Assembly: GCA_035647175.1 (NCBI GenBank)
Contig: DASRNX010000065.1
Location: forward strand, 1 to 33,816
Length of the DNA: 33,816 bases
Origin: Clostridia bacterium
GTDB lineage: Bacteria > Bacillota > Clostridia > Caldicoprobacterales > UBA3941
Direction of reading: 5' to 3'
Under the pieces are notes generated by a model. That model did no database searches. It saw nothing but the letters and a program-made list of their open reading frames with translations, and was not told the DNA's origin. The position numbers and the translations under genes are program-made. How positions within the stretch are numbered: position 1 is the stretch's first letter; every line of letters starts with the position of its first letter. Shown piece by piece: positions 1 through 26,517 of this stretch.

Positions 1-1839
1 TCCGGTTATGTTGATAATGAATACCCTAAACAGCAATTGATAGATTATCATGTTCGGAGAGTAATAGGCGGATGCGCTATGAATATTGTAGAGATTGCAG
101 CCGTTCATCCAACAACGAAATCCCCCACGATTTTAGGGATATATGATGATAAGTTTATACCGGGCCTTACCGAATTGGCAAAAGCAATTAAGGATGCCGG
201 AGGTATTGCCTGCATTCAGATTTGGCACGGGGGCAGACAGACATCAGGTAAGCCCTTTGGCGGGCAACCCGTAGCTCCGTCCGTAGTTACCAGTGCATTT
301 ATTGGGGAAGAGCCCAGAGCCTTGACCCTTGAGGAAGTTAAGGAGATGATCTCGAGCTACGGCGATGCTGCGGTAAGAGCAAAGAAAGCCGGCTTCGACG
401 CTGTTGAAATTCATGGTGCACATGGCTATCTAATAGATCAATTCCTCAACCCCTACACCAACCATAGAACCGATCAATACGGAGGCAGCCTCGAAAACAG
501 GGCTCGTTTCGGTTGTGAGGTAATTAGGGATGTCCGTTCAAAGGTAGGTAACGATTTCCCGCTTATTCTGCGAATGAGCGCGATCGAACATGTAGAAGGC
601 GGTATAGAGCTGGAGGAGGCTATCGAGGCGGCAAAGCTATATGTAAAATCCGGGCTTGATGCGTTGGATGTTTCGCAGGGTTGCTACGATGCATTGGCGT
701 ATACCGTTCCGCCTTACTATTACCCACAAAAGCTAAATGCCTATAACGCTTCTCAAATAAAAAAGCATACAGGTGTTCCTATGATCGTGGCCGGAAGAAT
801 TACCCATCCGGAGCTTGCCGAGGAAGTGCTTCAAGACGGTATGGCGGACTTTATCGGCCTGGGAAGACCGCTGCTGGCAGACCCGGATTTTATTAAAAAG
901 ACCACGGAGGGAAACACCGATGATATTGTACGCTGTATTGCCTGTAACCAGGGTTGTGTCGGGAGAATGTTTAATGGCCTTGGGAACAGTTGCATATTCA
1001 ACCCCGCCACCGGCCACGAGAGGGAAGTAATAGTAAAGCCCGCCTCGCAAAAGAAAAAGGTACTGGTTATAGGGGGAGGTCCTGCGGGATTAGAAGCAGC
1101 TAGGATAGCAAAGATCCGAGGTCATGAAGTTATTCTTTTAGAGAAAGATGTTGCCTTGGGCGGACAATTTATCGAAGCCGGGCATGCACCCCATAAGGAC
1201 ATTTTCTCCAAAGCGGCAATCCATATGGGGTACCGAGCATTTAAAGCAGGTGTCGATATAAGGGTCTACACTGCCGCAAATAGGGAAAGAATCAGGGAAA
1301 TTAACCCTGATGTAGTCATTGTGGCTACCGGGGCCGATCCCATTATACCGAATATCCCGGGAATCCATGGCCCCAACGTGTTTGAGGCAAGGAAGGTTAT
1401 AGTTTCAGACCAATTGATCAGGGCAGATCATGTAGCTATTATAGGCGGAGGGCTTATCGGGCTCGAAGCTATGGAAATCCTCAGCTACCAAGGCAAGAAG
1501 GTGGAAATAGTGGAGATGACGGGCGAGATTGGCAAAGACCTTGAGATGTATATAAAGCCTTATGTCTTCGGTGTTATAGATGAAATGTCCGTGGTGGTCC
1601 ATAAGAATACGAAATGTATTGAAATTAATGATGAATCCATCACTGTAGAAAAGGAAGGAAAACAACACAGGATTCCTTGTGGTGCGGTTGTCATTGCCGT
1701 GGGCTCTAAGAGTAACACATCCGTTGCGGATATGGCAGAGGAACTAGGCTACGAGTATTATATAATTGGCGATGCCAAGGAACCATCAAAACTCTTGCCT
1801 GCCATATGGGGAGGAAACGAAATCGCCAGAAGCATCTAG
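1..1839 (+). CDS. NADH:flavin oxidoreductase of the 2,4-dienoyl-CoA reductase / 2-enoate reductase family (5' end lies outside the window)
   Basis: Frame 1 is open from base 1 (SGYVDNEYPKQQL precedes the ATG at 37), so the N-terminus is cut by the window edge. It has an OYE-type barrel motif HGAHGYLIDQFL and a 4Fe-4S motif CIACNQGC...C. Two GxGxxG folds follow (VIGGGPAGLEAA, IIGGGLIGLEAM). Confidence 0.85.
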   Translation, partial: SGYVDNEYPKQQLIDYHVRRVIGGCAMNIVEIAAVHPTTKSPTILGIYDDKFIPGLTELAKAIKDAGGIACIQIWHGGRQTSGKPFGGQPVAPSVVTSAFIGEEPRALTLEEVKEMISSYGDAAVRAKKAGFDAVEIHGAHGYLIDQFLNPYTNHRTDQYGGSLENRARFGCEVIRDVRSKVGNDFPLILRMSAIEHVEGGIELEEAIEAAKLYVKSGLDALDVSQGCYDALAYTVPPYYYPQKLNAYNASQIKKHTGVPMIVAGRITHPELAEEVLQDGMADFIGLGRPLLADPDFIKKTTEGNTDDIVRCIACNQGCVGRMFNGLGNSCIFNPATGHEREVIVKPASQKKKVLVIGGGPAGLEAARIAKIRGHEVILLEKDVALGGQFIEAGHAPHKDIFSKAAIHMGYRAFKAGVDIRVYTAANRERIREINPDVVIVATGADPIIPNIPGIHGPNVFEARKVIVSDQLIRADHVAIIGGGLIGLEAMEILSYQGKKVEIVEMTGEIGKDLEMYIKPYVFGVIDEMSVVVHKNTKCIEINDESITVEKEGKQHRIPCGAVVIAVGSKSNTSVADMAEELGYEYYIIGDAKEPSKLLPAIWGGNEIARSI

Positions 1840-1853
1840 GCTAATGCTTTTTT

Positions 1854-1909
1854 GTTAACCTGTTGTGCTAGCTCAATATGTCGGTAACGAACTAGCACAA
1901 CAGGTTAAC
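1854..1909. repeat. Perfect 18-bp inverted repeat (gttaacctgttgtgctag / ctagcacaacaggttaac) with a 20-nt loop between convergent gene ends; possible atypical terminator
   Basis: Arms at 1854-1871 and 1892-1909 are exact reverse complements. A T-run precedes rather than follows the stem on the + strand, so it is not a canonical intrinsic terminator. Confidence 0.6.
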
Positions 1910-2298
1910 TAATAAATCGCTACCGGCCCGTGGGGTCCGCGGATAATTTCTATTTCCGTATCAAAAATATCGGTTAAAATTTCTTGATCCATTACTTCTT
2001 CTACCGGTCCAAATACCGCAATTTTTCCGTCCTTCATAGCACAGATCCTATCGGAATATTGCGCCGCAAAGTTTATATCATGCATCACGGTTAAAATCGT
2101 TCTTCCAAACTCATTGGCAACGTGTCTCAAGTGCTTCATCATCTGTACAGATCGGGCAACATCAAGGTTGTTGAATGCCTCATCCAGAAGCAGGTATTCG
2201 GTCTCTTGGCTTAAAGCCATAGCCACATATGCCCTTTGCCTTTGTCCCCCCGAGGAGCTCATCTAAATATCTGTTTTCCAGATCGGTGAGGCTCAAGT
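1909..2298 (-). pseudogene. Remnant of an iron-siderophore-type ABC transporter ATP-binding gene (C-terminal half only, frameshifted)
   Basis: The ORF at 1909-2262 encodes SGGQRQR (ABC signature), LLLDE (Walker B) and VMHD (H-loop). It has no Walker A or Q-loop. The preceding segment LSLTDLENRYLDEL lies in another frame (about 2255-2296), which implies a 1-nt frameshift near 2250-2256. Homology stops at the tRNA terminator. Confidence 0.75.
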
Positions 2299-2346: not shown

Positions 2347-2432
2347 TGGTGCGGGTGATGGGACTTGAACCCATACGTCGGTTAGACATACGGCCCTCAA
2401 CCGTACCTGTCTGCCAATTCCAGCACACCCGC
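2347..2432 (-). tRNA. tRNA-Leu (anticodon GAG), class II with long variable arm, CCA encoded
   Basis: The reverse complement reads GCGGGTG..TACGG-TTGAGGG-CCGTA..ATGGG-TTCAAGT-CCCAT-CACCCGC-A-CCA. The acceptor, anticodon and T arms pair correctly. The anticodon loop gives GAG with G37. Confidence 0.93.
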
Positions 2433-2524: not shown

Positions 2525-2666
2525 TTATAACATCGGAAGCAATTGCATTGGCAATTGCAACACACAGGTTTCAACGAGGCGGGTGATTTATACCCACCGC
2601 CTGTTTTACTAATCGGAGCTTACTCGCCGCTTATAAAAGCGGGAGACATCTTACCGACTCGTTATA
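2525..2666 (-). repeat. Family A interspersed structured repeat, copy A1
   Basis: It shares ordered blocks with 21585-21724 and 25334-25472. These are the end motif ttataacatcggaag / cttaccgactcgttata, hairpin gcaattgc-attg-gcaattgc (2539-2558), a GC-rich hairpin (2577-2602) and hairpin ctcgccgctt-ataa-aagcgggag (2623-2645). Confidence 0.8.
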
Positions 2667-12827: not shown

Positions 12828-13034
12828 GTTATCACCTTTCATTTGCTTTACGATAAACATACTATATTAATGCACTGTACCGGTTAAACACCCAAATGAA
12901 CCGGCATCACAGATTACATTATGCTTCTGGCATCATAAAACATCATTACTTATATGCTGCTTATATCTATATGCTGCGAAAAATGCGTCGATCCAAGGCA
13001 GGATCAAAGGGCTCAATCGACCTTGAACCGCTAG

Positions 13035-13181
13035 ATATGTTACGAAAAAGATCTTTCAATACAAAATCAGTTAAGTTATCTGATTTTGTGTTAAAGCAAT
13101 GTATTTTTCGTAACATATGAATTGAGGATAATGTTTTACGACACCCCTATGCTAATGTAGAATGTTTGTCGTAAAATATAG
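13035..13181 (+). repeat. Family B composite inverted-repeat element, copy B1
   Basis: Roughly four-fifths of positions match the reverse complement of 19361-19508 by eye. It has a long two-tier hairpin. The outer tier is 15 bp (13035-13049 / 13104-13118) and the inner tier is 10 bp (13061-13070 / 13080-13089). A second hairpin pairs ttttacgaca / tgtcgtaaaa (13134-13143 / 13167-13176). Confidence 0.8.
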
Positions 13182-13330
13182 ACCCCCATGGAACGTACAT
13201 AGTTTACATAATATATTTTTACAGACATGATACGATTATAACATGGACTTATAGGCGTAGGCAACAACAATATGTTTTACGACAAACATTACCTATATTG
13301 GTACACAGGTCTGCTGTCTCAAAAAAGTTG

Positions 13331-13359: not shown

Positions 13360-13390
13360 ATTTTTACTGCGTCCCACGGTACGGATATTT

Positions 13391-13477
13391 GCCCGAGTGA
13401 TGGAATTGGCAGACGTGCGGGATTCAAAATCCCGTGGTAGCGATACCGTGTCGGTTCGAGCCCGACCTTGGGCACCA
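13391..13477 (+). tRNA. tRNA-Leu (anticodon CAA), class II, CCA encoded
   Basis: The sequence reads GCCCGAG..CGGGA-TTCAAAA-TCCCG..GTCGG-TTCGAGC-CCGAC-CTTGGGC-A-CCA. All arms pair, with one G-U in the acceptor stem. A long variable arm is present. Confidence 0.93.
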
Positions 13478-14255: not shown

Positions 14256-14479
14256 CTTATAACCCCCTCAAATAAGTGGTCTCATATATAAGAGCATGTG
14301 CGCTCCTTATATTGCATAGTATGTATGGGAAGCAGCTTTTGTGAATAAGGAAGTTTCTAAAATGTTTTTGCAATTTGTTATAGATAAATTTAGTTGACCT
14401 ATTGTTTATCTACAGATAATCAACTACAACTATAAAAGGGGAACCATTCCTACAATGGATTTTTGGGGAGGTTACAGTC

Positions 14480-16429
14480 ATGGATGGGATTATTAACTTT
14501 GAATCGACTAGTTTTCTACAGGATCGGGAAGGGACCATATGGTTCTTCTATTTGTCCGATAATCAAAGAATTGGGTATGCTGTCAATATTCAGGGCGATT
14601 GGTCTGCCCATGAACATATCGATTCTCAGCCCATAAAGGGTTATTCGGCGACCCTAGACAGCAAAGGCATTATCCGATTGATTGCCTATACCGCTACTCA
14701 TCAATTAATCTATTACGAATTCGTGGGGGGTAAATGGAATAGCCAGGTGATAGAGCGAATCTATTCCAGATATCAGGATATCCCCTATTATTCTATACGA
14801 TCTTCGGTATTGGGCATTCATATTCTGTATTACATAAATCATTCCCTCAGCAGAAGCGGTGAAACCCTGATCCATTACTATCTGCAAGATGGGAGATGGA
14901 ACGGCGGAAGGCTCTGGAAATTTGTATCGGACCAGATGACTATGGTCCGGGATCTATATATCGATTCCCATAACAACCTCCAGCTTCTATTCACCCAAAG
15001 ATGGAGACAAAAACACCATCTTTATCACTGTGTATACGACCATGCCACCTTATCCTGGATGGATCCTGTCAATATCCATTCCGCGGTCTCTAGCTATGAC
15101 TACAGGTTGTTTGTAGGTTCGTCAGATGATCCCCACATCCTCTGGCATACAGAAATGGAGGGAAACCGACATATACACCACCTGTTTAAATCGGGGCCAC
15201 CACAAGATAGCCCCTCATGGCAGGAAGCATTGATTCATGAGACCCCACACAGCATTGATACACCGGTGCTCATGGAAGACGATAATGGGCTGTATTGTAT
15301 CTGGAAGGAGGATGGTCTAATATACAAAAGGCTTTCACATGATCTTGGGAGAACCTGGTCTACCCCTCAAGTGGCCACAGACAGCATGAATTATGACGCC
15401 AGCCTCCTTGATTTTGCATACTTAGACAACGGTATACCCAGATCCCTAAGCCTATGGGGGCAGGGCTACCCGGCTATGAGACTTGCAGTAGCCGACGATA
15501 AGATAGTGATAGATAGGGTAAAGATGCAAGATTCACCAAAACCTCCGCAACCCTCACCGGATCTTGACCAGGGAAAGAGGGATTCATTGGCTATTGCTGA
15601 TATTAAAAGAACAATCGCTTCCATAAGGAGAAAAAACAGCGGTCTTTCGGAGGACATTGGGAATCTGTCTGTCCAGGTGGATCGTCTAAATGCATTGGTC
15701 TACACCCTTCAGGAGCAGATACAGATAAATGACCGCTCACTTTTCAATATCCATGCACAGATTAAGCAGTTAGACTTTCAGATAAAACAGCTTCAGCTTA
15801 GGTCTCGTCAGGTAAGCCCCAGGGTGTATAGTGCGGACGATAGCCGATATAGACCTTTGCCCATTACCTTGGATCAGGATGGAAAAATCCTTGTAGAATC
15901 TCAGCATCTACCGGCAGATGTATCGGCGGATGTAGAGGAGGACGAAGGAATGGAGCCGTTGGAGGAAAATGAAAGCAAATTAATTCATAAAGAGGATTCT
16001 AACCCCCTAAATAACAATCAGACTTACGCGGAATCGAAATCATCTCCAAAGGTAAAACCGCCGCAAACAGGTGATTCAACCGGGGGGCCGAAAAAGGATC
16101 CCCCTATGGGGGGTGGGAACACCCCAAAGGAAACCAAACCCAAAGTCCATGGTGATGGTCCCGTAGTCAGCGAAAGTACGGGAGATAGCATAAGTATGGA
16201 AGATAGCATAAGTACGGAGGATAGGAAAAGTATGGGGGATAGGAAAAGCACCAAGGAAAGCACCAGCCCAAGGGCTATAGTCACCGTCGAGGCCGTAGTA
16301 AGTCCCGAAGATGACGATCCCCCGGAAACCGATAGCCATCCGGAAGATAAAAGCAACAGGGATATTGAAAGGATATCCCTAGGCAATACCACTATACTTA
16401 TAAACCCTGAAAATCCAGAGGATTTTTAA
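14480..16429 (+). CDS. Hypothetical protein: N-terminal BNR/Asp-box beta-propeller-like region, central coiled coil, long disordered Ser/Pro/Asp/Glu-rich tail
   Basis: The 649-aa ORF has a GGGGAGG RBS. It contains a canonical Asp-box, SHDLGRTW (S-x-D-x-G-x-T-W), and repeated aromatic-rich strand-like segments. A heptad-like stretch (LSVQVDRLNALVYTLQEQIQ...QIKQLQL) is followed by low-complexity sequence. Confidence 0.65.
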   Translation: MDGIINFESTSFLQDREGTIWFFYLSDNQRIGYAVNIQGDWSAHEHIDSQPIKGYSATLDSKGIIRLIAYTATHQLIYYEFVGGKWNSQVIERIYSRYQDIPYYSIRSSVLGIHILYYINHSLSRSGETLIHYYLQDGRWNGGRLWKFVSDQMTMVRDLYIDSHNNLQLLFTQRWRQKHHLYHCVYDHATLSWMDPVNIHSAVSSYDYRLFVGSSDDPHILWHTEMEGNRHIHHLFKSGPPQDSPSWQEALIHETPHSIDTPVLMEDDNGLYCIWKEDGLIYKRLSHDLGRTWSTPQVATDSMNYDASLLDFAYLDNGIPRSLSLWGQGYPAMRLAVADDKIVIDRVKMQDSPKPPQPSPDLDQGKRDSLAIADIKRTIASIRRKNSGLSEDIGNLSVQVDRLNALVYTLQEQIQINDRSLFNIHAQIKQLDFQIKQLQLRSRQVSPRVYSADDSRYRPLPITLDQDGKILVESQHLPADVSADVEEDEGMEPLEENESKLIHKEDSNPLNNNQTYAESKSSPKVKPPQTGDSTGGPKKDPPMGGGNTPKETKPKVHGDGPVVSESTGDSISMEDSISTEDRKSMGDRKSTKESTSPRAIVTVEAVVSPEDDDPPETDSHPEDKSNRDIERISLGNTTILINPENPEDF

Positions 16430-17006
16430 AAAGAGAATCCAGGGATTTTAAAAGGACTTCCCTCCCCTGCCCGGTACTCGAGGAAAATGGAATCATTGGA
16501 CCATCTGCCGAAAGTCCCAATTTGTTCCGCAACTTGTCAATTTGCGGTTTGATTCTGGTTTTTCCCAGTTTATCGGCCTTTGTAGCCACGATGATTAGTG
16601 GCATATCATAGTGACCTATCCAATTGAGCATAGTAATATCATCATCGGTGGGGTTATGTCTTATATCTATGAGTTGGATTATTCCCAAGAGATTTGGGGA
16701 GGCAGAGAGAAACGTCTCAATCATATATCCCCATCTCTCCTTTTCTTTTCGGGACACCCTGGCAAACCCATAACCCGGAAGATCCACCAGATAGAAAGTC
16801 TCATTAATCCTATAAAAATTTACCAACCGGGTCTTCCCCGGCTGACCGCTGGTCTTGGCCAGCTTAGACCGCCTAGTAATTGTGTTTATAACGGAAGACT
16901 TGCCCACATTAGATTTTCCCGCCAAAGCGATGTAGGGCAGATGATCCGTCGGGTATTGATGCGATTCTACGGCACTGGTTATAAATTCAGCCTTTACTAT
17001 CTCCAT
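16398..17006 (-). CDS. engB: Ribosome biogenesis GTP-binding protein YsxC/EngB
   Basis: The G1 motif is GKSNVGKSS and DLPGYG is also present. Its position downstream of lon matches the Bacillus arrangement. The start is set at the ATG at 17006 (G-rich RBS), which overlaps the lon 3' end by 20 nt. Confidence 0.9.
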
Positions 17007-19344
17007 CTCTATCCCCTTCCCTCCCTGATAGCGCATGTTCTAGGATCTCATCCATATTTTGAACCGCTACTATCTCTATTTCTTCCTTAATGTTATCCGG
17101 TATCTCCTCTAAGTCCTTGGTGTTCTCATCGGGAATTATAACTTTGGCAATCCCCGCCCTATGTGCTGCCAAGATTTTTTCTTTGAGCCCCCCTATGGGC
17201 AATACCCTGCCCCTTAGGGTAATCTCGCCTGTCATCGCTATGTCCCGCCTTACCGGCGTTTCCGTTAGGGCGGAAATAATGGCGGTGGCTATGGTAATAC
17301 CCGCCGACGGGCCGTCTTTGGGAATAGCTCCTTCGGGTATGTGGATATGGATGTCCGTATTATTATAAAAATCCGGATCTATATCAAAATCTTTGGCTTT
17401 GGATCTAATATAACTGAGACCTGCCCTGGCAGACTCCTTCATTACATCTCCCAATTGCCCCGTCAAAACCAGCTTTCCGGTCCCTACCATGGGAGTTACC
17501 TCTATATAGAGGGTATCCCCGCCCACAGCCGTCCATGCGAGCCCGGTAACCAAACCAACCTCGTCCTTCTGGTTTGCCTTATTAAAGCTAAAGCGTGGGA
17601 TCCCCAGATATTCATGAAGGTTTTTTGGCGTAATTCGAATTCGCTTTCTGCCGGCCTCCAATAGGAACCTTACCCCTTTTCTGCAGATGGCAGCTATCTG
17701 TCTTTCCAGGTCCCTTACCCCAGCTTCTCTGGTATAGTGATTGATAATGCTTCGGATGGTTTGTTCAGGAAATATGATGTTCCCTCTCTTTAATCCGTGC
17801 TCCTCCAGCTGCTTTGGTATTAGATATTTTAATGCAATATTTGTTTTCTCCTCCTCTGTGTACCCTGCGATGCGTATTACCTCCATCCTGTCCAACAGCG
17901 GGCGAGGTATCGTATCTAAGGTATTGGCGGTGGTTAAAAACATAACCTTTGACAGATCATAGGCCAGTTCCAGATAATGATCCCTAAAGGTAAAGTTTTG
18001 TTCCGGATCTAATACTTCCAGCATGGCAGACGCCGGATCTCCCCTAAAATCGCCGCTCATCTTATCTATCTCGTCCAATATAAAGACCGGATTTTTTGAT
18101 CCCGCCTGTTTAATGGAGGATATTATAGTGCCCGGTATAGAACCTACGTAGGTACGCCTATGTCCCCTGATTTCGGCTTCGTCCCGGACGCCGCCCAATG
18201 ACATGCGCACAAAGTTTCGGCCAAGAGCCCTGGCAATGGATTTTGCGATAGAGGTCTTCCCCACCCCCGGCGGCCCTACAAAACAGAGTATGGGGCCTTT
18301 CATATTCTGAGTAAGCTGCAGGACAGCCAAATACTCCATTACCCTCTCTTTTACCTTGTCCAGTCCATAATGATCCTGATCCAAAATGCGCGCCGCAGAC
18401 TTTAGGTTATGGTTATCCTTGGTCTCGTGATTCCATGGCAAATCCAATACCCAGTCCAAATAGGTACGGATAATGGAACTTTCCGGCGAGGTTAAAGGTG
18501 TCCTCGAAAAACGCTCCAATTCACTTACGGCCTTCTCATGGACCTCCTCAGGTAGTGAAGCCTTTTCTATCCTCTTGTTATAGTCCTCAACGTCAGAGGA
18601 TATACTGTCACTTTCCCCTAATTCTTTTTGGATAGCCTTCATCTGCTCCCTAAGATAGTATTCCCTTTGGACTTTATCGATCTGTTTTTTAACCCTGAGG
18701 TTGATCTTCTTTTCGATCCTCAGTATTTGAATCTCGTTTTCCAAAAATTTATGCAATATCTGAAGCCTTTCCATGGGCCTGAAGGCTTCAAGGATCTCCT
18801 GTTTATTACTGTTTTTCACTAACACATTGGCAGCTACTATATCGGCAAATTGGCCTATATCGTCTACTGTATTAACCGATACCAGAGTATCCGGGGATAT
18901 CTTATTGCTCAGCTTGATAAATTCTTCAAAGGCATCCATTACGGTTCTCATCAATGCCTCTTCTTCTAAGGGATCGCTATCCTCCTGGTCCGGTTGTTCC
19001 TCTATAAGTACCTCAAAGAACTTATCGTTGTCTAAAAACTCTACAATCCTGCCCCTGTTTATACCCTCAACCAATACTCTGATGGTATCTCCCGGCAGTT
19101 TAAGTAGCTGTTTTATCTTAGATACCGTCCCTACGGTAAATAGGCTATCCTTGTCAGGCTCTTCGACCTCTGGTTCCTTTTGAGTTACTAAAAATATATC
19201 CTGATTATTTACCATTGCATCTTCCAATGCTGAGATGGATTTTTGTCTGCCTACATCAAAATGTAGGACCATATATGGAAAAACCGTTAGACCCCGAAGG
19301 GGTAATAGGGGCATTTGTCTGGTTTTTATGTCTTTCTTTGACAT
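16987..19344 (-). CDS. lon: ATP-dependent protease Lon (LonA type)
   Basis: The 785-aa ORF has a LON N-domain, the AAA+ Walker A motif GPPGVGKTS and the protease motif DGPSAG with a downstream Lys. An AGGAG RBS is present. Confidence 0.95.
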
Positions 19345-19360
19345 CTTTCATTGCTCCTTT

Positions 19361-19508
19361 CTATATGCTTCACGACAAACATTCTACATTAATATGCCGG
19401 TGTCGTAAAACATCATGCTCAATTCATATGTTGCGAAGAATATATTGTCCCCACACAAGATCAGATGATTTAACTGATCTTGTAATGAAAGGTCTTTTCG
19501 TAACATAT
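19361..19508 (-). repeat. Family B composite inverted-repeat element, copy B2 (ends 17 nt upstream of the lon start codon)
   Basis: Its reverse complement aligns along the full length of 13035-13181. The inner stem carries a compensatory change, acaaGatcag/ctgatCttgt versus acaaAatcag/ctgatTttgt in B1. Confidence 0.8.
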
Positions 19509-19708
19509 GGAGATAACAGTCTATATGGGATGAACCAAAACGCACTTAGCATGAATCCGGAAAACTATCGGGTATCATCAAATAAACATTGTGTAGTCAA
19601 AGTCCAAAAAGTTGAATTATCCATACCGTGGATCGGCATCGTATAATATATTTTTTGAAACTTCCTCGATGAGGCCATTATATACTCAACAATAAATCGG
19701 TGCAAGGC

Positions 19709-19737
19709 AAAAAAATGCCGGCAGTGTGCCCGGCATT
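19709..19737 (-). terminator. Rho-independent terminator of lonB
   Basis: The minus strand reads atgccgggcacactgccggcat followed by ttttttt. Confidence 0.8.
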
Positions 19738-19761
19738 TAAATATCAATTAGAAAAGCCAAG

Positions 19762-21450
19762 TTAAGTTGTATAATGCCTTCTTCCGGAGGCGCTGAGGAG
19801 ACCCGCATTCTGTATCATGGGTTCTAAATTTTGCTCCTCCCGCCCTTTGCACACCACCTGTTCTATGACCTCTTCTATTCTTCTAACCGGTATTATCTCT
19901 ATACCGTATGCCGAGTGCTGTTCATTCCAATTGTCCTTAGGGATGATTACCTTCTTGACACCGGCCCCTACCGCCGCATGCAGCTTTGCATTGATACCTC
20001 CCACCGGCTTAACCTCTCCCCGAATGGATATCTCACCAGTCATGGCCGAATTGTTGTCGATGGGAAGACCCGTTATGGCCGAATAAATAGCGATTACTAT
20101 GCTTATTCCCGCTGACGGCCCGTCAATGGGAATCCCCCCGGGAAAATTCAAATGTATGTCATAATCCCTTGGATCCACGTCCAGGAACTTCCTTATCACG
20201 GTCATTACGTTATCTACTGAACTCTTAGCAGTACTCTTACGCCTGCTTTTTTTGACTCCAGAACCGATTTCTTCCTCGTCGACAATTCCGGTGATGGTGA
20301 CAATACCGCCGCCTTTAATGCTTGGCAGGGCCGATGCCTCCACCTCGATTAAGGTCCCTAGGTTAGCGCCATATACCGCCAGACCGTTAACATATCCTAC
20401 TTGAGGAGAATCCAGCACCTTTTTTTCGGGTCGGGGCGAATAATGTCCGCTGTTTATCACCCATTCAACATCCTCCACCAGTATATGATTCCGGTTTTCT
20501 GTCAGGGCCAAGCCCACGGCTAATTGAATTATATTTACGGTATCGCGTCCGTTGGATGCATATTTACCTATTAGCTCCACACTGTCCTCACCCATATGGA
20601 ACCCGGCCTTATCAGCGGCATTTCGGGCTATTATCATATTCTCTTCCTGGGTTAAGCCCCTAAAATAGATTTCAAGGCACCTGGACCTGATGGCCGGGGA
20701 TATCTCCTCGGGATTTCTGGTCGTAGCTCCGACCAATCTAAAATCTGCGGGTAATCCCCTTTTAAAGATTTCATGTATGTGCCTTGGAATATTGCTGTCT
20801 TCCGAGTTATAATACGCGCTTTCTAAAAAAACTTTGCGGTCTTCCAATACCTTAAGGAGCTTATTCATTTGGATTGGATGTAATTCGCCTATTTCATCAA
20901 GAAATAGCACGCCGCCATGGGCTTTGGTGACAGCTCCGGGCTTTGGCTGCGGTATGCCGGCTACCCCCAACGGGCCGGCTCCCTGGTAGATCGGGTCATG
21001 CACCGAACCAATTAGCGGATCTGCGATGCTCCGCTCATCAAATCGGACGGAAGTGGCATCCATCTCTATAAATTTTGCATCCTTTCGAAACGGTGACATG
21101 GGATTCTTCTTTGCCTCGTCTAAGACGATGCGAGCGGCACATGTTTTGCCTACACCAGGCGGCCCGTATATCAATATATGCTGGGGATTAGGTCCGCACA
21201 GCGCCGCCTTTAAGGCTTTAATACCCTCTTCCTGTCCGACTATATCGTTAAAGACGTTGGGCCTTGTCTTTTCGGACAGGGGTTCACTGAGGGAGATCTC
21301 CCTGAGCCTTTGGAGTCTCTCCAGCTCTTTTCGCGATTCCCTTTCTACGGCCGACTTGTTTCCCTGTTGCCCCTTTAATAGATTAAGAAAATACAGACCT
21401 ATCACAACAGCAAAGAATAGGTTTATAACAGCCAATATATTTCCCAGCAA
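19762..21450 (-). CDS. lonB: Membrane-anchored Lon-like ATP-dependent protease LonB (sporulation type)
   Basis: It has an N-terminal TM helix, Walker A GPPGVGKT and the protease motif DGPSAGIS. At 562 aa, lying between clpX and lon, it matches B. subtilis. The start is a TTG with an AAGGAGG RBS 7 nt upstream. Confidence 0.9.
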   Translation of the reverse strand: MLGNILAVINLFFAVVIGLYFLNLLKGQQGNKSAVERESRKELERLQRLREISLSEPLSEKTRPNVFNDIVGQEEGIKALKAALCGPNPQHILIYGPPGVGKTCAARIVLDEAKKNPMSPFRKDAKFIEMDATSVRFDERSIADPLIGSVHDPIYQGAGPLGVAGIPQPKPGAVTKAHGGVLFLDEIGELHPIQMNKLLKVLEDRKVFLESAYYNSEDSNIPRHIHEIFKRGLPADFRLVGATTRNPEEISPAIRSRCLEIYFRGLTQEENMIIARNAADKAGFHMGEDSVELIGKYASNGRDTVNIIQLAVGLALTENRNHILVEDVEWVINSGHYSPRPEKKVLDSPQVGYVNGLAVYGANLGTLIEVEASALPSIKGGGIVTITGIVDEEEIGSGVKKSRRKSTAKSSVDNVMTVIRKFLDVDPRDYDIHLNFPGGIPIDGPSAGISIVIAIYSAITGLPIDNNSAMTGEISIRGEVKPVGGINAKLHAAVGAGVKKVIIPKDNWNEQHSAYGIEIIPVRRIEEVIEQVVCKGREEQNLEPMIQNAGLLSASGRRHYTT

Positions 21451-21584
21451 AACACTGCCTCCTTACAAAAGTATAACCTTTAGATCCGCCGAAAACATGC
21501 AAATTCTCGCTATGACAGCGGTGGCGACCCTGCCGCAATGGCTCTATTTTACCGCATAAAGAAAGCGTTTATACATGGAAGCCA

Positions 21585-21724
21585 TTTATAGCAGGCAAAG
21601 CAATTGCTACGGCAATTGCATCAGGCTGGTTTAAGCAGGGCGGGAATATATGCGCACCCCCTGTTGTACAAATCATAGCCCAATACTTATGGGAGTGAGA
21701 AACATATTACCGCCCCGTAATATT
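21585..21724 (-). repeat. Family A interspersed structured repeat, copy A2
   Basis: It has the same block order as A1. These are hairpin gcaattgc-tacg-gcaattgc (21600-21619), a GC-rich hairpin around 21636-21663, hairpin ccca-atactta-tggg, and the end motif attaccgccccgtaatatta. Confidence 0.75.
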
Positions 21725-21775
21725 ATGGTGTAAATAAGTGGTTTTTATCCCATAAGGCTGCCGGGAAGTATTCCC

Positions 21776-21803
21776 ATAAAAAAGGAGCCGTACTAGGCTC
21801 CCT
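21776..21803 (-). terminator. Rho-independent terminator of clpX
   Basis: The minus strand reads agggagcc-tagtac-ggctccttt followed by a T run. It begins directly after the TAA stop. Confidence 0.85.
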
Positions 21804-23090
21804 TTAAGATACTGATTCTCTCTTATCCTTTGTCTTTTTCATACCCTTTCGGCTTCTCTGGCCTTCGGATAGAATTAGTATAGGATCGCTATTGTTAATT
21901 ATGGTTTCCTTGGTAATTATGCATTTCTCGACATCATCCCTGGAGGGGATATCGAACATAACATTCAGCATAATCCTTTCAAGAATTGCTCTAAGACCCC
22001 TTGCGCCCGTCTTCCTCTCGACGGCTCTTTTTGCGATAAGCCTAAGTGCTTCATCCTCAAATTCCAGTGCGACCCCATCCATCTCCAACAGCTTCTGATA
22101 TTGTTTTACCAATGCGTTCTTGGGCTCCTTTAGGATTTGGACCAGCGCCCCCTCGTCCAGGGAATTCAGCGTAACAACCACGGGGATACGACCCACAAAC
22201 TCCGGTATCAATCCATATCGGAGCAGGTCTTCCGGCAAAATCTTTTCCAAAGTCTCGCCTACGTCGTAGTTTACGTTGCTACGTATCTCGGCCCCGAAGC
22301 CCATTGATTTTTTGCCTATCCTGTTTTGTATTATCTTGTCTATACCGTCAAAGGCTCCGCCACAAATAAAGAGAATATTGGTAGTATCAATCTGAATGAA
22401 TTCCTGATGAGGGTGCTTTCTCCCCCCCTGGGGAGGTACACTGGCAACAGTCCCTTCCAGAATCTTTAGAAGAGCCTGTTGGACCCCTTCCCCGGAAACG
22501 TCCCTTGTTATGGAGGGATTTTCAGATTTTCTGGCTACCTTATCAATCTCGTCTATATAGATAATGCCCTTTTCTGCCCTTTCAACATCGTAGTCAGCCG
22601 CTTGTATAAGCTTTAATAGGATATTCTCCACATCCTCACCGACATATCCTGCCTCTGTGAGGGATGTCGCATCGGCAACTGCAAAAGGTACATTTAAAAT
22701 TCTTGCCAAGGTCTGGGCTAGGAGAGTCTTGCCGGAGCCGGTGGGTCCAAGCATTACAATATTGCTCTTGTAGAGCTCAACATCATCCTTTGCCACGTCA
22801 CTGTTTATCCTCTTGTAGTGATTGTATACCGCCACCGACAAGGTCTTTTTAGCAGCTTCCTGGTCAATCACGTATTGATCAAGGATTTCCCTGATCTCTA
22901 TGGGTTTTGGGATGTCCCTGATATCCAGATCAGAGGCGTCATCGAATTCTTCCTCTATTATTTCTTGACACAGCTCAATACATTCATCGCATATATAGAC
23001 CCCGGGGCCGGCTACCAAACGTCTGACCTGATCTTGGGTCTTGCTGCAAAATGAACACTTGAGTTGCTTTTTGTCATCATATCTAGCCAT
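21804..23090 (-). CDS. clpX: ATP-dependent Clp protease ATP-binding subunit ClpX
   Basis: It has an N-terminal zinc ribbon (CSFCSK...CDEC), Walker A GPTGSGKT, Walker [10 protein letters not shown] and the IGF-loop region. Confidence 0.95.
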
Positions 23091-23336
23091 ACTTTCACCT
23101 CTTCTTTAACTATATGTTTCGCATTAAATATTGTGTCAGATTATTTCCTTATCGCGAACCATACCGTTCTTTAATAGAGTGTTCTGTATCAGTAATGTGT
23201 GTATGCGGACAACTTAAAGTCGCCCTTGCCAATCTATGCCAATCTATGGCCTTTCCTTACATTTCGGATGTTAAAAATCATCCCGTCTCCGCCATAATAT
23301 TATCATATCGGAGGATTAAAAGCTAACCTCATACAT

Positions 23337-23921
23337 TTATTTACGGGAGACAATTACATCGTCAATAATTCCATAGCTCTTAGCGTCCTCAGCTGACATG
23401 AAAAAGTCACGATCCGTATCCTTTTCAATCCTATCCAAGGGCTTGCCTGTTCTTTCGGCTAAGATTTCATTTATCTTTTTCTTTAGCTTCAGAATCTGTT
23501 CGGCCTGGATCGCAATATCAGAGGCTTGGCCCTGTGCGCCGCCTAGAGGCTGGTGGATCATGATCTCACTGTTAGGAAGCGCCAAACGTTTGCCCTTGGT
23601 TCCTGCAGCCAGTAAAAAAGCGCCCATGGATGCGGCCATCCCTACACAGATGGTAGACACATCGCATTTTAGGTACTGCATAGTATCAAATATCGCCATC
23701 CCGGCAGTGACTGATCCCCCCGGACTGTTGATATAGATGAGTACATCCTTATCCGGATCCTTTGCCTCTAAAAACAATAATTGGGCAACAACTAAATTGG
23801 CCGTCAAATCGCTTATAGGACCACCTAAAAATATTATTCGATCCTCAAGCAGCCTGGAATATATGTCATAAGACCTCTCACCACGACTGGTTTGTTCAAC
23901 AACAATAGGCACTAAATTCAT
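23337..23921 (-). CDS. clpP: ATP-dependent Clp protease proteolytic subunit ClpP
   Basis: The 194-aa ORF starts [22 protein letters not shown]. The catalytic Ser context is GMAASMG and the His context is MIHQP. Confidence 0.95.
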
Positions 23922-23969
23922 TTTGCCGTTCCCTCCTTATATATTTCGGCGGTTTAGGTATTGGTATTC

Positions 23970-25304
23970 CTAACCTTCCTGTGTCTGTTGCTCCTCGGGT
24001 TTTGCATCTTCTTCCGGGGCTTCAACAATTACCGCTTGCTCCATAAGAAAATCTATGGTTTTTTGTATGGATAGGCTGTGTCTCAGCCCATCTTCTTGGC
24101 CCTCGTACCTTTTCTTTACCTCATCGAGGTCCAATTTATATTCTTCGGCAATGGTGTTGTATTCCTTTTCCACATCCTCGTCAGTTGCCTCTATTGCCTC
24201 TTCCTTATTTATCTGTTCAAGAGCCAGCTGAAGCCTGACCCTGTGGTTCGCCTCGTCACTCATATCGGATCTAAAGTTATCCATAGACGAGCCTATCATG
24301 CCCAGATAGCTATTTAAATCCATGCCCTGATACCTCATCCTCGTATCCATTTCTCTGATGGATGTATCTATTTCCCTCTCAATCATGACCTCGGGTACAT
24401 CCGCTTCCATATTTTCAACTATCTTCCTAAGGAGGAGGTTTTCCATCTCGCTTTTCCCTCTGCGTGCCGCGTCCTCGTCCATGCGCTCTTTTAAATCTGC
24501 CCTATATTCTTCCACGGTATCAAACTCACTGATGTCCTTGATGAATTCATCATCTAATTCGGGCAACTCTTTTTCTTTTATTTCATGGACTTTAACCTCG
24601 AAAATAGCATCCTTGCCTTTTAAATCTTCGGAATGGTATTCCTCAGGGAAAGTGACCTTAACTTCACCTTCACTGCCGGCATCCATACCAACCAACTGCT
24701 CTTCAAATCCGGGTATAAATTGCCCCGAACCTATCTCTAGGGTTTGGTTTTCCGCAGTGCCCCCCTCAAAGGCTTCACCGTCAACATAGCCTTTATAATC
24801 AAGGGTTATACGATCGCCCTCTTCAACGGATCTGTCTTCAACGGTTATCCATCTTGCATTCTGTTCCCGGGACCTCTCAAGCTGATCGTCTATATCCTGG
24901 TCTGTAACATTATACTCAACCTTGTTAATTTCTATTCCCTTATACTGGCCCAGAACAACCTCAGGTTTTACCGCTACTTCTGCAGTAAATATAAGGTCCT
25001 GACCGTCGCCGATCTGCACAACATCAAAGTCCGGCTGATCCACTGGGAACAGCTCATGCTCCTCTACAGCCTCATCATATATAGTAGGTAAGGTTTCTGC
25101 TAAGGCGTCCTCATAGAATATTCCTTCGCCATAATAGCGTTCAATTATCTGGCGGGGTGCCTTTCCCTTCCTAAACCCGGGGATGGATATGCGTCCCCTA
25201 TTTTTTAAATATGACTTTTGCATTGCCTCATCAAACTGCTTTGCGTCTACCTCTATTTCCAGTTTCACCTTGCTATTTTCGAGTCTTTCTACATTCGCTT
25301 TCAC
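23970..25304 (-). CDS. tig: Trigger factor
   Basis: The start is set at the GTG at 25304 (the TTG at 25307 is possible), with AAGGAGG 8 nt upstream. This gives the typical N-terminus (M)KANVERLENSKVKLEIEV. The ribosome-binding motif GFRKGKAP and an FKBP domain are present. The longer track ORF runs into repeat A3. Confidence 0.9.
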   Translation of the reverse strand: MKANVERLENSKVKLEIEVDAKQFDEAMQKSYLKNRGRISIPGFRKGKAPRQIIERYYGEGIFYEDALAETLPTIYDEAVEEHELFPVDQPDFDVVQIGDGQDLIFTAEVAVKPEVVLGQYKGIEINKVEYNVTDQDIDDQLERSREQNARWITVEDRSVEEGDRITLDYKGYVDGEAFEGGTAENQTLEIGSGQFIPGFEEQLVGMDAGSEGEVKVTFPEEYHSEDLKGKDAIFEVKVHEIKEKELPELDDEFIKDISEFDTVEEYRADLKERMDEDAARRGKSEMENLLLRKIVENMEADVPEVMIEREIDTSIREMDTRMRYQGMDLNSYLGMIGSSMDNFRSDMSDEANHRVRLQLALEQINKEEAIEATDEDVEKEYNTIAEEYKLDLDEVKKRYEGQEDGLRHSLSIQKTIDFLMEQAVIVEAPEEDAKPEEQQTQEG

Positions 25305-25333
25305 CAAAAAGTCCTCCTTAGTTCGTATATACC

Positions 25334-25472
25334 TTAAGATATCGGGAGTAATTGTTCTAACAATTGTATATACAGATTTCAACGAGGTGGGGATTTTTAT
25401 CCGCCGCCTGTTTTAGCTAATCGGAATCCACCACTTGAAGAAACAGTAATTGTCTTTCCGTCCCGTTATAAT
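25334..25472 (-). repeat. Family A interspersed structured repeat, copy A3 (inside the predicted tig 5' leader)
   Basis: It has the same block order as A1 and A2. The hairpin is taattgt-tcta-acaattg (25349-25366). The segment tttcaacgaggtgggg...ccgccgcctgtttta..ctaatcgga and the end motif ccgtcccgttataat follow. Confidence 0.75.
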
Positions 25473-25479
25473 CTTTAAT

Positions 25480-25508
25480 ATTATAACACATCATTCATGG
25501 TTGTCCAA
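25480..25508 (-). promoter_or_regulatory. Sigma-A-type promoter with extended -10 reading toward tig
   Basis: The minus strand reads TTGGAC-17 nt-TATAAT, preceded by TGt. The -35 is at 25508-25503 and the -10 at 25485-25480. Confidence 0.55.
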
Positions 25509-25558
25509 CATTATTATAGTGTAATTTGCTAATCATCGCGTAATTTACTAATATTCCT

Positions 25559-25588
25559 TTGACAATGTCTGAGAGTCTCCATTATAAT
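25559..25588 (+). promoter_or_regulatory. Sigma-A-type promoter of fabI (TTGACA-18-TATAAT)
   Basis: Both hexamers match the consensus exactly, at 25559-25564 and 25583-25588. It lies back-to-back with the tig promoter. Confidence 0.6.
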
Positions 25589-25654
25589 TTATATAACCGC
25601 CCGGAGGATAAAATAACACAATCGATTCCTTGAGTGGGTAATATCCAATTTAAG

Positions 25655-26446
25655 ATGAAAGGAATGGCGCAATTGAATACTTTATTGAAGGATAAAACGA
25701 TCCTCATCATGGGGGTAGCTAACAAATGGAGCATTGCATGGGGTATCGCAGAGGCCTGCATCGATGCAGGGGCCAATATAATTTTTACATACCAGGGGGA
25801 GAGAAACCTATCCAGCCTTCAAAAGCTTACGGCAAATCTACCCAATGCTTCTTTATATAAGTGCGATGTGACGGTGGATCAAGATATTACAGACCTATTC
25901 CATGATATTGGCAACGATTTTGGGACTGTCCACGGTATAGTACATAGTATAGCTTTTGCAAAGAAGGAAGAGTTAGAGGGGGCTTACTACAACACCAGCC
26001 GGGAAGGATACCATCTGGCCCAGGACATTAGCGCCTACTCCCTGGTGGCTGTCAGCAGGCATGCCAGGCCTCTTATGCAGGATGGGGGCAGCATCCTTAC
26101 CTTAACCTATTTGGGAGGAGAGAGGGCCGTCCAAAATTATAATGTCATGGGAGTGGCCAAATCCGCCTTAGAATCGTCAGTCAGATACCTGGCGGCTGAT
26201 CTGGGCCCGGAAAATATTCGGGTTAATTCCATCTCAGCAGGCCCTATTAAGACCTTGGCAGCCCAAGGCGTCAAAGGGTTTGGGTCTATCTTAAAGGTCT
26301 ATGAGGAAAAGGTACCCCTTCGCAAAACCGTTACCCAAAGGGAAGTGGGGGATACAGCCGTCTTTTTGCTAAGCCAAATGTCTCGCGGCATAACGGGGGA
26401 AAATATCCACGTCGATGCGGGTTATCATGCCATGGGTCTTCTATAA
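25655..26446 (+). CDS. fabI: Enoyl-[acyl-carrier-protein] reductase (NADH), FabI
   Basis: Sequence resembles B. subtilis FabI as recalled (GVANKWSIAWGIA, the Y-x6-K region VMGVAKSALE, ISAGPIKT, GENIHVDAGYH). The start is ambiguous (GTG 25634, ATG 25655 or ATG 25664) because none has a well-spaced RBS. Confidence 0.9.
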   Translation: MKGMAQLNTLLKDKTILIMGVANKWSIAWGIAEACIDAGANIIFTYQGERNLSSLQKLTANLPNASLYKCDVTVDQDITDLFHDIGNDFGTVHGIVHSIAFAKKEELEGAYYNTSREGYHLAQDISAYSLVAVSRHARPLMQDGGSILTLTYLGGERAVQNYNVMGVAKSALESSVRYLAADLGPENIRVNSISAGPIKTLAAQGVKGFGSILKVYEEKVPLRKTVTQREVGDTAVFLLSQMSRGITGENIHVDAGYHAMGLL

Positions 26447-26517
26447 CTTGTGTGTTGCAATTGCTTCCGATGTTATAACGGGTCGGCAAGATGTCTCCCG
26501 CTTCTATAAGCGATGAG
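26447..26517 (+). repeat. Family A repeat, permuted junction copy A4 (right-end block fused to left-end block)
   Basis: The sequence cttgtgtgttgcaattgcttccgatgTTATAAcgggtcggcaagatgtctcccgcttctataagcgatgag corresponds to the two ends of A1 joined at TTATAA. The central GC hairpin block is absent. It starts at the base after the fabI stop codon. Confidence 0.7.

Follow-up and report, generated by a model that had tools for sequence, protein, structure and literature searches.

The closest analogue of the repeat family described here is bcr1, a group A repeat of Bacillus cereus. Two published accounts describe bcr1 as a sequence of about 155 bp that has no coding capacity, is present in many intergenic copies, occupies positions that are not conserved between related strains, and is flanked by direct repeats of a fixed pentamer, TTTAT, whose duplication may accompany insertion (PMC3184786, PMC6542083). 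They also report a cruciform-like structure of independent stem-loops that is kept by compensatory changes and transcribed with neighbouring genes (PMC3184786, PMC6542083). Classical bacterial MITEs are also often co-transcribed and influence neighbouring genes (PMC3184786). The family examined in this study, hereafter family A, resembles bcr1 by description in its AT-rich 5-bp repeats, compensated stem-loops and non-conserved positions. Their pentamers differ (TTTAT in bcr1, TTATA in family A), and so do their hosts: bcr1 belongs to the B. cereus group, and family A occurs in thermophilic, anaerobic Clostridia and on a single plasmid of Selenomonas. Furthermore, family A is distinguished from bcr1 by its three hairpins with a closing stem and by frequent modular deletion forms.

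Other small repeats share part of this description. Correia/NEMIS, RUP, ERIC and Nezha are, like family A, short structured repeats that occur in many intergenic copies and duplicate their target. In these elements the terminal inverted repeats are clear, at 15-30 bp, and the duplication is a palindromic TA; a recognisable parent insertion sequence (IS) is known for RUP and Nezha, whereas family A has marginal inverted repeats, a 5-bp non-palindromic duplication of fixed polarity, and no parent IS in the searches given below. BOX of Streptococcus pneumoniae and the BIMEs of enterobacteria are similar to family A in having modules that are present, absent or repeated, but they have no sequence relation to it and no defined TTATA boundaries. 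The IS200/IS605-derived PATEs have in common with family A a fixed-polarity AT-rich target, the absence of real inverted repeats, subterminal hairpins and a strand bias; family A differs from them in its dissimilar end hairpins, in having no associated tnpA/tnpB, and in a bias whose polarity is contrary to expectation. With a probability of roughly 85%, family A is a small, non-coding, non-autonomous mobile element of anaerobic Bacillota, approximately 135 nt in length and bounded by TTATA. A literature search returned no paper with the sequence strings of the element and none describing a bacterial MITE with a TTATA duplication, and the family is apparently undescribed so far, although the kind of element is already known.

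The window, i.e. the whole 33,816-nt stretch of Clostridia DNA that was analyzed, contains one repeat family consisting of three full copies (A1, A2 and A3) and a composite partial copy. Aligned end to end on the + strand, A1 to A3 are approximately 137-142 nt long and have a mean column identity of 75%. For an independent test, a family profile was derived solely from 21 copies outside the window, all of them in other genomes or in metagenomes. This profile recovered A1 (E 1.8e-28), A3 (E 7e-14), A2 (E 4.5e-13), and the two pieces of the partial copy (E 1.5e-5 for 26479-~26529 and E 3.7e-3 for 26442-26478), with no further match in the whole window. The original prediction of a repeat at four places, made from the window alone, is therefore confirmed by 75% column identity and by a profile that owes nothing to the window (E 1.8e-28 to 3.7e-3).

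Copy A1 (2525..2666, + strand) is the best-preserved full copy. Both of its TTATA pentamers are perfect (2525-2529 and 2662-2666) and enclose a body at 2530-2661, in which hairpin 1 occupies 2539-2558, hairpin 2 occupies 2578-2601 and hairpin 3 occupies 2623-2645, while the closing stem is formed by 2573-2578 pairing with 2658-2663. Copy A2 (21586..21722, + strand), a degenerate full copy in the clpX-lonB spacer, retains TTATA at the left (21586-21590), with a right pentamer (21718-21722) that now reads TAATA and hairpin 1 at 21600-21619. Copy A3 (25334..25470, + strand), a degenerate full copy upstream of tig, has a left pentamer (25334-25338) that now reads TTAAG and an intact TTATA at the right (25466-25470). 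The blocks listed from the outset, namely an end motif, a GCAATTGC-N4-GCAATTGC hairpin, a G+C-rich hairpin and a further hairpin, were all found. The GCAATTGC-N4-GCAATTGC arrangement is present at 2539-2558 and 21600-21619, with 0.13 matches expected by chance. Hairpin 1 of A3 is TAATTGT-TCTA-ACAATTA/G, and inspection of the sequence bears out the compensatory change proposed there, the loop-closing C-G pair having become T-A.

The fourth place had been read as a permuted partial copy. It is indeed partial, but the apparent permutation is a tandem remnant in which a truncated and a minimal copy share one pentamer. The minimal copy (26442..26478, - strand) has the left end, one GCAATTGC where hairpin 1 has collapsed, and then AACACACAAG; its pentamers, TATAA as read on the + strand, lie at 26442-26446, where they contain the fabI stop codon, and at 26474-26478, on either side of a body at 26447-26473. 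The 5'-truncated copy (26479..~26529, - strand) comprises hairpin 3 and the right end, includes 45 nt that are 89% complementary to 2622-2666, and is joined head-to-tail to the minimal copy via the shared pentamer 26474-26478. Read along its own top strand (the - strand of the window), the region is thus a truncated copy, TTATA, a complete minimal copy, and TTATA. A head-to-tail junction with a single shared pentamer was also present in loci L244 and L272, and the minimal architecture of 26442-26478 in loci L249, L253, L283 and L295. Metagenome contigs assembled from the same organism end exactly at 26478, and the breaks fall at element edges.

The only point in favour of a local segmental duplication, which the original prediction had allowed for, or of chance similarity within the window is that no more than four places could be seen at first. 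A census for further copies, which had been proposed as a check, yielded approximately 50 more in at least 10 Clostridia genomes or metagenome-assembled genomes (MAGs), several metagenomes and a Selenomonas plasmid. These copies in unrelated genomes and metagenomes, the sharp boundaries with unrelated flanks, and E values down to 1.8e-28 with the independent profile rule out local duplication or chance similarity, the probability of which is negligible. A degenerate pattern derived from the left part of the element retrieved 33 loci in species-representative genomes and MAGs, all of them Clostridia. Four of the 33 belong to the complete genome of Petroclostridium sp. X23, several MAGs hold 3-6 loci each, and the other hosts include Lutispora, a Syntrophomonadaceae MAG and a Ruminiclostridium MAG. 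A second pattern retrieved 21 metagenome loci. Two simpler patterns were discarded: GCAATTGC-N4-GCAATTGC is a palindrome that matches random genomes, with only L056 representing a real copy, and its combination with GRTTT gave chance matches, mostly a Nitrosotalea coding region, with a Thermoclostridium match that is also coding.

Plasmid pSRC1 of Selenomonas ruminantium was found by blastn to carry the element's right two-thirds attached to another left module, and this was the only match when the family consensus was compared by blastn with 72,556 PLSDB plasmids. The Selenomonas copy has a tyrosine recombinase gene 1.3 kb away, a single case. Searches of phage and viral collections returned no copies. 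All copies are intergenic, lie among unrelated genes, and have units of 48-219 nt. Proteins that recur in the neighbourhood are two-component regulators, transporters and metabolic enzymes, with no transposases among them. The distribution of family A is patchy and multi-copy: when a 21-kb syntenic region was compared across 80 Clostridia, a copy was present in only one, yet several genomes carry multiple copies.

The consensus of the family is TTATA-ACAACGGAAG-GTAATTGC-GTAA-GCAATTAC-AACACACCGTTTC-AACGAGGC-GGGAGATATGCTCACC-GCCTGAAAATCCAAATCGGTA-CCCGCCACCTATAGAGGTGGGGG-ACATCTTTT-GCCTCGTT-ATA. Its layout, from 5' to 3', is TTATA, a body made up of ACAACGGAAG, hairpin 1, AACACACCGTTTC, a closing stem around hairpins 2 and 3 and the motif GCCTCG, and a second TTATA. 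Modular variants of this layout are frequent. Forms of 80 nt are devoid of hairpins 2 and 3, with the identical deletion found at different loci of one genome (L262 and L270), and further shortened forms measure 70 nt and 48 nt. Extra inserted hairpins are present in L056, L252, L258, L276 and L281, while a sibling family represented by L272 and L281 has a different first hairpin. A related mosaic repeat in L276 and L290 has the hairpin-3 module in common with family A.

The window belongs to a member of the Caldicoprobacterales, and its LonB protein shares 89% identity with the LonB of a Caldicoprobacterales MAG and 75% with the one of Caldicoprobacter oshimai. Of the relatives found, the two closest (L163 and L165, with LonB 89% and 88% identical to the window, respectively) retain the gene order GT-orf97-fabI-tig-clpP-clpX-lonB and have no element at clpX-lonB, upstream of tig, or after fabI. 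Upstream of tig, the relatives have the empty site GTATATACC-TTATA-ATCTTTAAT, where the window has GTATATACC-TTAAG-(132-nt element)-TTATA-ATCTTTAAT. In the clpX-lonB spacer, the relatives have TCGT-TTATA-TTATG and the window has CCAT-TTATA-(element)-TAATA-TTATG. The fabI-orf97 spacer is approximately 15-20 nt in L163 and L165 versus 95 nt in the window. Because the empty sites carry a single TTATA, insertion is precise, turns one TTATA into two, and is polymorphic between related genomes; the comparison draws on a pair of related MAGs with two or three empty sites between them, and movement is deduced from presence and absence. The proposed search for empty sites in relatives was thus borne out at the A2 and A3 sites, where a single TTATA stands in place of TTATA-element-TTATA. 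A2 and A3 are approximately 25-35% diverged from A1, while their flanks differ from those of the relatives by approximately 10% (read by eye from the aligned flanks), and therefore these copies either came from already diverged sources or are fast-evolving. Taken with the multi-copy family and its deletion and tandem forms, the precise presence or absence and the duplicated TTATA uphold the earlier suggestion of a MITE-like mobile repeat.

The copies are situated among core housekeeping genes (tig, clpP, clpX, lonB, lon, fabI and tRNA-Leu) whose synteny is conserved in relatives. A1 sits between tRNA-Leu(GAG) (2347-2432, - strand) and a predicted promoter, TTGACA-N17-TATAAT (2740->2712, - strand), that matches the consensus at 12/12 positions. 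The right pentamer of A2 overlaps the last two bases of the promoter-like GGATA-N18-CATAATA (21750->21721, - strand) upstream of lonB. This motif is conserved in all relatives compared and has the look of a forespore sigma-G/F promoter, the type known for lonB in B. subtilis. A3 is placed upstream of tig, 30 nt from the start codon (GTG at 25304, - strand), with a promoter-like TGGACA-N16-(TG)TATAAT (25507->25480, - strand) about 10 nt before it. Each of the three full copies is consequently 0-40 nt downstream of a predicted -10 box, that of tRNA-Leu(GAG), lonB or tig. Since the copies sit downstream of predicted promoters, the bottom strands of A1 to A3 would most likely be transcribed within long structured 5' leaders of tRNA-Leu(GAG), lonB and tig, and the copies are very probably co-transcribed within host leader RNAs. 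Through the duplicated pentamer, lonB kept its -10 box and fabI its stop codon. There was no evidence of function in the window beyond such side effects, i.e. longer leaders and a preserved -10 box and stop codon.

The secondary structure was examined with 24 distinct full-length copies, for a model of three hairpins plus the closing stem (AACGA/TCGTT). In this alignment 88% of cells were paired, versus 37-49% when partners were slid by 1-3 columns, and pairs changed on both sides numbered 13, versus 7.3 +/- 1.6 in shuffles, a value reached in 0/500 shuffles. For example, 13 copies have U-A and 10 have C-G as the second pair of hairpin 1. These findings support the maintenance of the three hairpins by compensatory changes. 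Folding z-scores for the top and bottom strands were -4.9 and -4.5 for A1 and -4.2 and -3.7 for a consensus-like copy; the copy in L257 folds strongly like A1 (z about -4 to -5), and the decayed copies A2 and A3 have z-scores of -1.0 to -2.4. The ratio of G-T to A-C cells was 4:0 in hairpin 1 (7:0 with partial copies added by hand), 14:17 in hairpin 2 and 11:19 in hairpin 3. Both strands fold about equally and G-T and A-C cells are balanced in hairpins 2 and 3, so that either strand could be the folded one. Compensatory changes can also arise without any folded strand, via template switching or a dimeric DNA-binding protein. The folding constraint could act on DNA, as a transposition-intermediate hairpin or a dimeric protein site, and not on RNA.

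Conserved hairpins with compensatory changes, the strong folding of A1 and L257, and the position of A1 to A3 in predicted 5' leaders downstream of promoters are also what would be expected of a functional structured RNA, either a cis-regulatory leader or a small RNA, that had been copied to several genes. However, the corresponding leaders of the closest relatives that were found have no copies, and the neighbour genes across approximately 50 copies are unrelated, with the element in both orientations. Truncated and tandem copies exist, and the strands fold equally well, with G-U and A-C cells balanced in hairpins 2 and 3. A search of the window against Rfam 15 gave no match at the gathering score or at E<=1 besides two tRNAs, and a consensus-like copy gave only chance-level matches at E<=10, including weak ones to MIR5269 and CRISPR-DR16 that were rejected as chance. 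A structured RNA of this kind is thus very improbable. The original prediction was right in not recognising the repeat as a known RNA family, while its alternative of a dedicated transcribed RNA module is disfavoured by the lack of an Rfam match, the unrelated neighbours, the non-syntenic positions, the occurrence of both orientations and the lack of a clear G-U strand preference in hairpins 2 and 3.

A terminator-like appearance had also been attributed to the G+C-rich hairpin, with avoidance of termination offered as the reason for its orientation. In a simple terminator scan only hairpin 2 of A3 passed; the other copies failed, and the tail after the hairpin is T-rich in 7 of the 24 full copies and mostly A-rich (read from the alignment). 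A SPRITE-like intrinsic terminator repeat was consequently rejected, only A3 passing the scan and the U tract not being conserved. Terminator avoidance was likewise dismissed as a general cause of the orientation, as the T-tail is not conserved across the family.

The boundaries of the element are defined by the pentamer. Of the 29 copies that have both ends, 23 carry TTATA at the left and 27 carry it at the right; the pentamer is never inverted, and the sequence beyond it is unconserved. The inverted end motif originally described is a property of the window subfamily, in which it reaches CGG.AAG; across the family the ends consist of a TTATA direct repeat and a weak inverted repeat. The TTATAA ends, first taken as element sequence, are mostly target pentamer, and the true terminal inverted repeats are weak. 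These features bear on whether family A is a classical MITE, that is, a deletion derivative of an IS whose DDE transposase, supplied in trans, would bind the terminal inverted repeats and make a 5-bp staggered cut at TTATA. Such an origin would account for a small element that encodes nothing, has many intergenic copies and is flanked by a 5-bp direct repeat that is single in empty sites. In addition, the ends TTATAAC...GTTATAA look like an imperfect inverted repeat in which approximately 11/15 positions match (by-hand count), and which extends to CGG.AAG in the window subfamily. However, the duplicated target makes up five of the seven terminal bases that match well, and beyond these the ends barely match (approximately 4/8 positions, by-hand count). 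A symmetric transpososome would give both polarities, whereas the pentamer has one polarity and 3/3 tandems are head-to-tail, and the preference for T at -1, observed in approximately 90% of copies, is mirrored by A at +1 in only 48%. Neither the 8-20 kb around copies nor the plasmid and viral/phage collections revealed a parent IS. A classical MITE is therefore regarded as a possible but doubtful origin.

Several more specific mechanisms were considered and rejected. Duplication of a TA dinucleotide of the IS630 type is at odds with empty sites that hold the whole TTATA, and Xer/dif-type integration with insertion at more than a single site. Integron attC sites have similar AAC...GTT ends, but there are no cassettes. 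Within 8-20 kb around each copy, no transposase or recombinase recurred and no left and right ends enclosed an ORF, and when the ORFs of all loci were clustered, the resulting families were exclusively housekeeping ones. A second left-end match in L268, considered as a partner end, falls inside a pyruvate formate-lyase gene and is attributed to chance.

The orientation of the copies is biased. Genes of the window are nearly all on the - strand and its GC skew is negative throughout, and A1, A2 and A3 are all antisense to the surrounding genes. Across the family, copies between co-directional genes were antisense in 18 cases and sense in 11 (16:9 without duplicate loci), which is not significant. 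The top strand is on the negative-GC-skew strand in 34 of 46 loci (34:12), while TTATA in intergenic DNA is 1.26 times commoner on that strand, so that the orientation excess over TTATA availability is modest (p ~ 0.02, normal approximation to the binomial). An orientation bias of about 3:1 thus exists but is modest and not absolute, and in loci of 8 kb replication and transcription are confounded. The orientation selection suggested for the window therefore holds in part, for A1 to A3 and by GC skew, and is incomplete in the family as a whole (18:11).

A strand bias of 34:12, exceeding the 1.26:1 target availability, would be natural for a PATE-like derivative of IS200/IS605, in which a Y1 HUH transposase would excise one strand and insert it 3' of the pentamer at the replication fork and the second pentamer would be the element end. 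IS200/IS605 elements such as IS608 and ISDra2 characteristically have an AT-rich tetra- or pentanucleotide target of fixed polarity, subterminal hairpins and empty sites that are precise, and they have no real inverted repeats. Family A has the fixed-polarity AT-rich target, the subterminal hairpins, the precise empty sites and weak inverted repeats, and tandems with one pentamer would be the natural outcome of a right end that recreates the target. However, a single transposase would be expected to bind similar hairpins at the two ends, and hairpin 1 (GTAATTGC/GCAATTAC) is unrelated to hairpin 3 (CCCGCCACC/GGTGGGGG) or to the closing stem. The short forms without hairpins 2 and 3 (L262 and L270) have spread nonetheless. 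Furthermore, the 4:0 ratio of G-T to A-C cells in hairpin 1 places the folding strand on the negative-skew strand, opposite to the lagging-template prediction, while hairpins 2 and 3 have no wobble asymmetry, and no tnpA gene was found near copies. Descent from an IS200/IS605 element is accordingly considered unlikely.

The family A element would be moved by an enzyme encoded elsewhere. If it is a mobile element, oriented integration is favoured, at close to even odds, and might proceed either by conservative recombination at a TTATA core or by single-strand peel-and-paste of the HUH type. Oriented integration is preferred because the invariant pentamer is not a palindrome and keeps a fixed polarity, because the inverted repeats are weak and tandems share a single pentamer, and because the flank preference is asymmetric and the strand bias is 3:1. 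A classical DDE transposase with a 5-bp staggered cut is the second choice on the same premise, at appreciably longer odds, and some other mechanism is improbable.

A wider relationship between family A and bcr1 can be proposed only tentatively. Both would belong to a Bacillota class of hairpin-rich elements with a fixed-polarity AT-rich pentamer (TTATA or TTTAT) and little or no terminal inverted repeat, integrating in one orientation with a strand bias and moved by a recombinase or single-strand transposase, possibly a host enzyme; we regard such a class as rather unlikely. Sequence similarity between the two was not detected in an indirect test of homology: the family A consensus gave no Bacillus match among the PLSDB plasmids, which should include those of B. 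cereus that are reported to carry bcr1.

Family A is an ordinary kind of element, of modest interest as a mobile repeat with strict polar TTATA targeting. Since TTATA is the reverse complement of TATAA, with which the -10 hexamer TATAAT begins, this target tends to put insertions beside promoters. Units of family A break metagenome assemblies, lengthen the leaders of tig, lonB and tRNA-Leu, and could pass for regulatory RNAs, and the family profile allows their masking and annotation in Clostridia MAGs from anaerobic digesters. The question of the mobilising enzyme is common to bcr1 and family A, and a second, unrelated family gives comparative leverage on it. If the bcr1-like class is true, a search for the enzyme would be directly feasible in Petroclostridium sp. 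X23, whose genome is complete.

The insertion point of A2, a window copy of the Family A repeat, was located at the 3' edge of a promoter-like motif upstream of lonB, GGATAAAA-N14/15-CATAATA (window 21721-21750, - strand). This motif is kept in all Caldicoprobacterales relatives compared (L163-L179) and resembles a forespore sigma-G/F type promoter, and its -10 box was left intact by the duplicated pentamer of A2. A Family A copy was also found on the Selenomonas ruminantium plasmid pSRC1 (L296, 185,5xx-185,740), where the insertion site is a TTATA at the centre of a palindrome (CTTTAGCA-TTATA ... TTATA-ATAATGCTAAAG); a tyrosine recombinase gene is located 1.3 kb from this copy.

The organism of the window was found in five public sequencing runs at 99.7-99.98% identity, as Logan assemblies (SRR5678805-SRR5678812; contigs L297-L301) aligned to window positions 14379-26478. 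Contigs ended at the junction of a tandem Family A remnant (26478), next to the Family A copy A3 at its edge (25481 and 25501), and within another short repeat, D2/I3 (14379-14382). Since the contigs end at repeats, short-read assemblies are broken by these elements.

The window carries a second repeat, a 135-nt unit that is unrelated to Family A, at 13046-13180 and 19364-19498, with the two copies mutually inverted and 82% complementary; further places listed for it are 12841-12861, 13161-13180, 13270-13290, and 19363-19383. One copy immediately precedes the start codon of lon (19344, - strand), and its counterpart is situated approximately 210 nt upstream of tRNA-Leu(CAA). Within the unit are multiple boxes resembling ATGTTTTACGACA/TGTCGTAAAACAT as well as an extended palindrome (ATATGTTACGAAAA...TTTTCGTAACATAT), and the unit looks like an operator or promoter module common to both places rather than a Family A relative.

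Both tRNA-Leu genes of the window (2347-2432 and 13391-13477) scored 45-48 bits in an Rfam E-value search, above the gathering score of 29 bits; that a search at the gathering threshold missed them looks like an effect of the tool's filter. What registers as inverted repeat I4 (30 nt; 2409-2438 paired with 13385-13414) is simply the 5' part common to these two genes. A probable bidirectional terminator at 1848-1915 is formed by a separate 27-nt inverted repeat (89% complementary, 14-nt loop), on which the ORFs 37-1839 (+) and 1909-2262 (-) converge from either side.

Repeats related to Family A were identified outside the window. A sibling family (L272, 1430-1500 and 3-174; L281, 3952-4077, - strand), found in tandem with Family A copies, has the Family A layout and TTAT-type ends, but its first hairpin differs (GTTTTGC-N4-GCAAAAC). 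A mosaic repeat of approximately 190 nt, TTCAATGAGCGCTTGCGCGAATTG...TTTGATAAA (L276, 3826-3889, - strand; L290, 1410-1600, + strand), has only the AATCGGT...CCGCC-TATAGAGG-GGGG hairpin module in common with Family A, which suggests that repeat families exchange modules.
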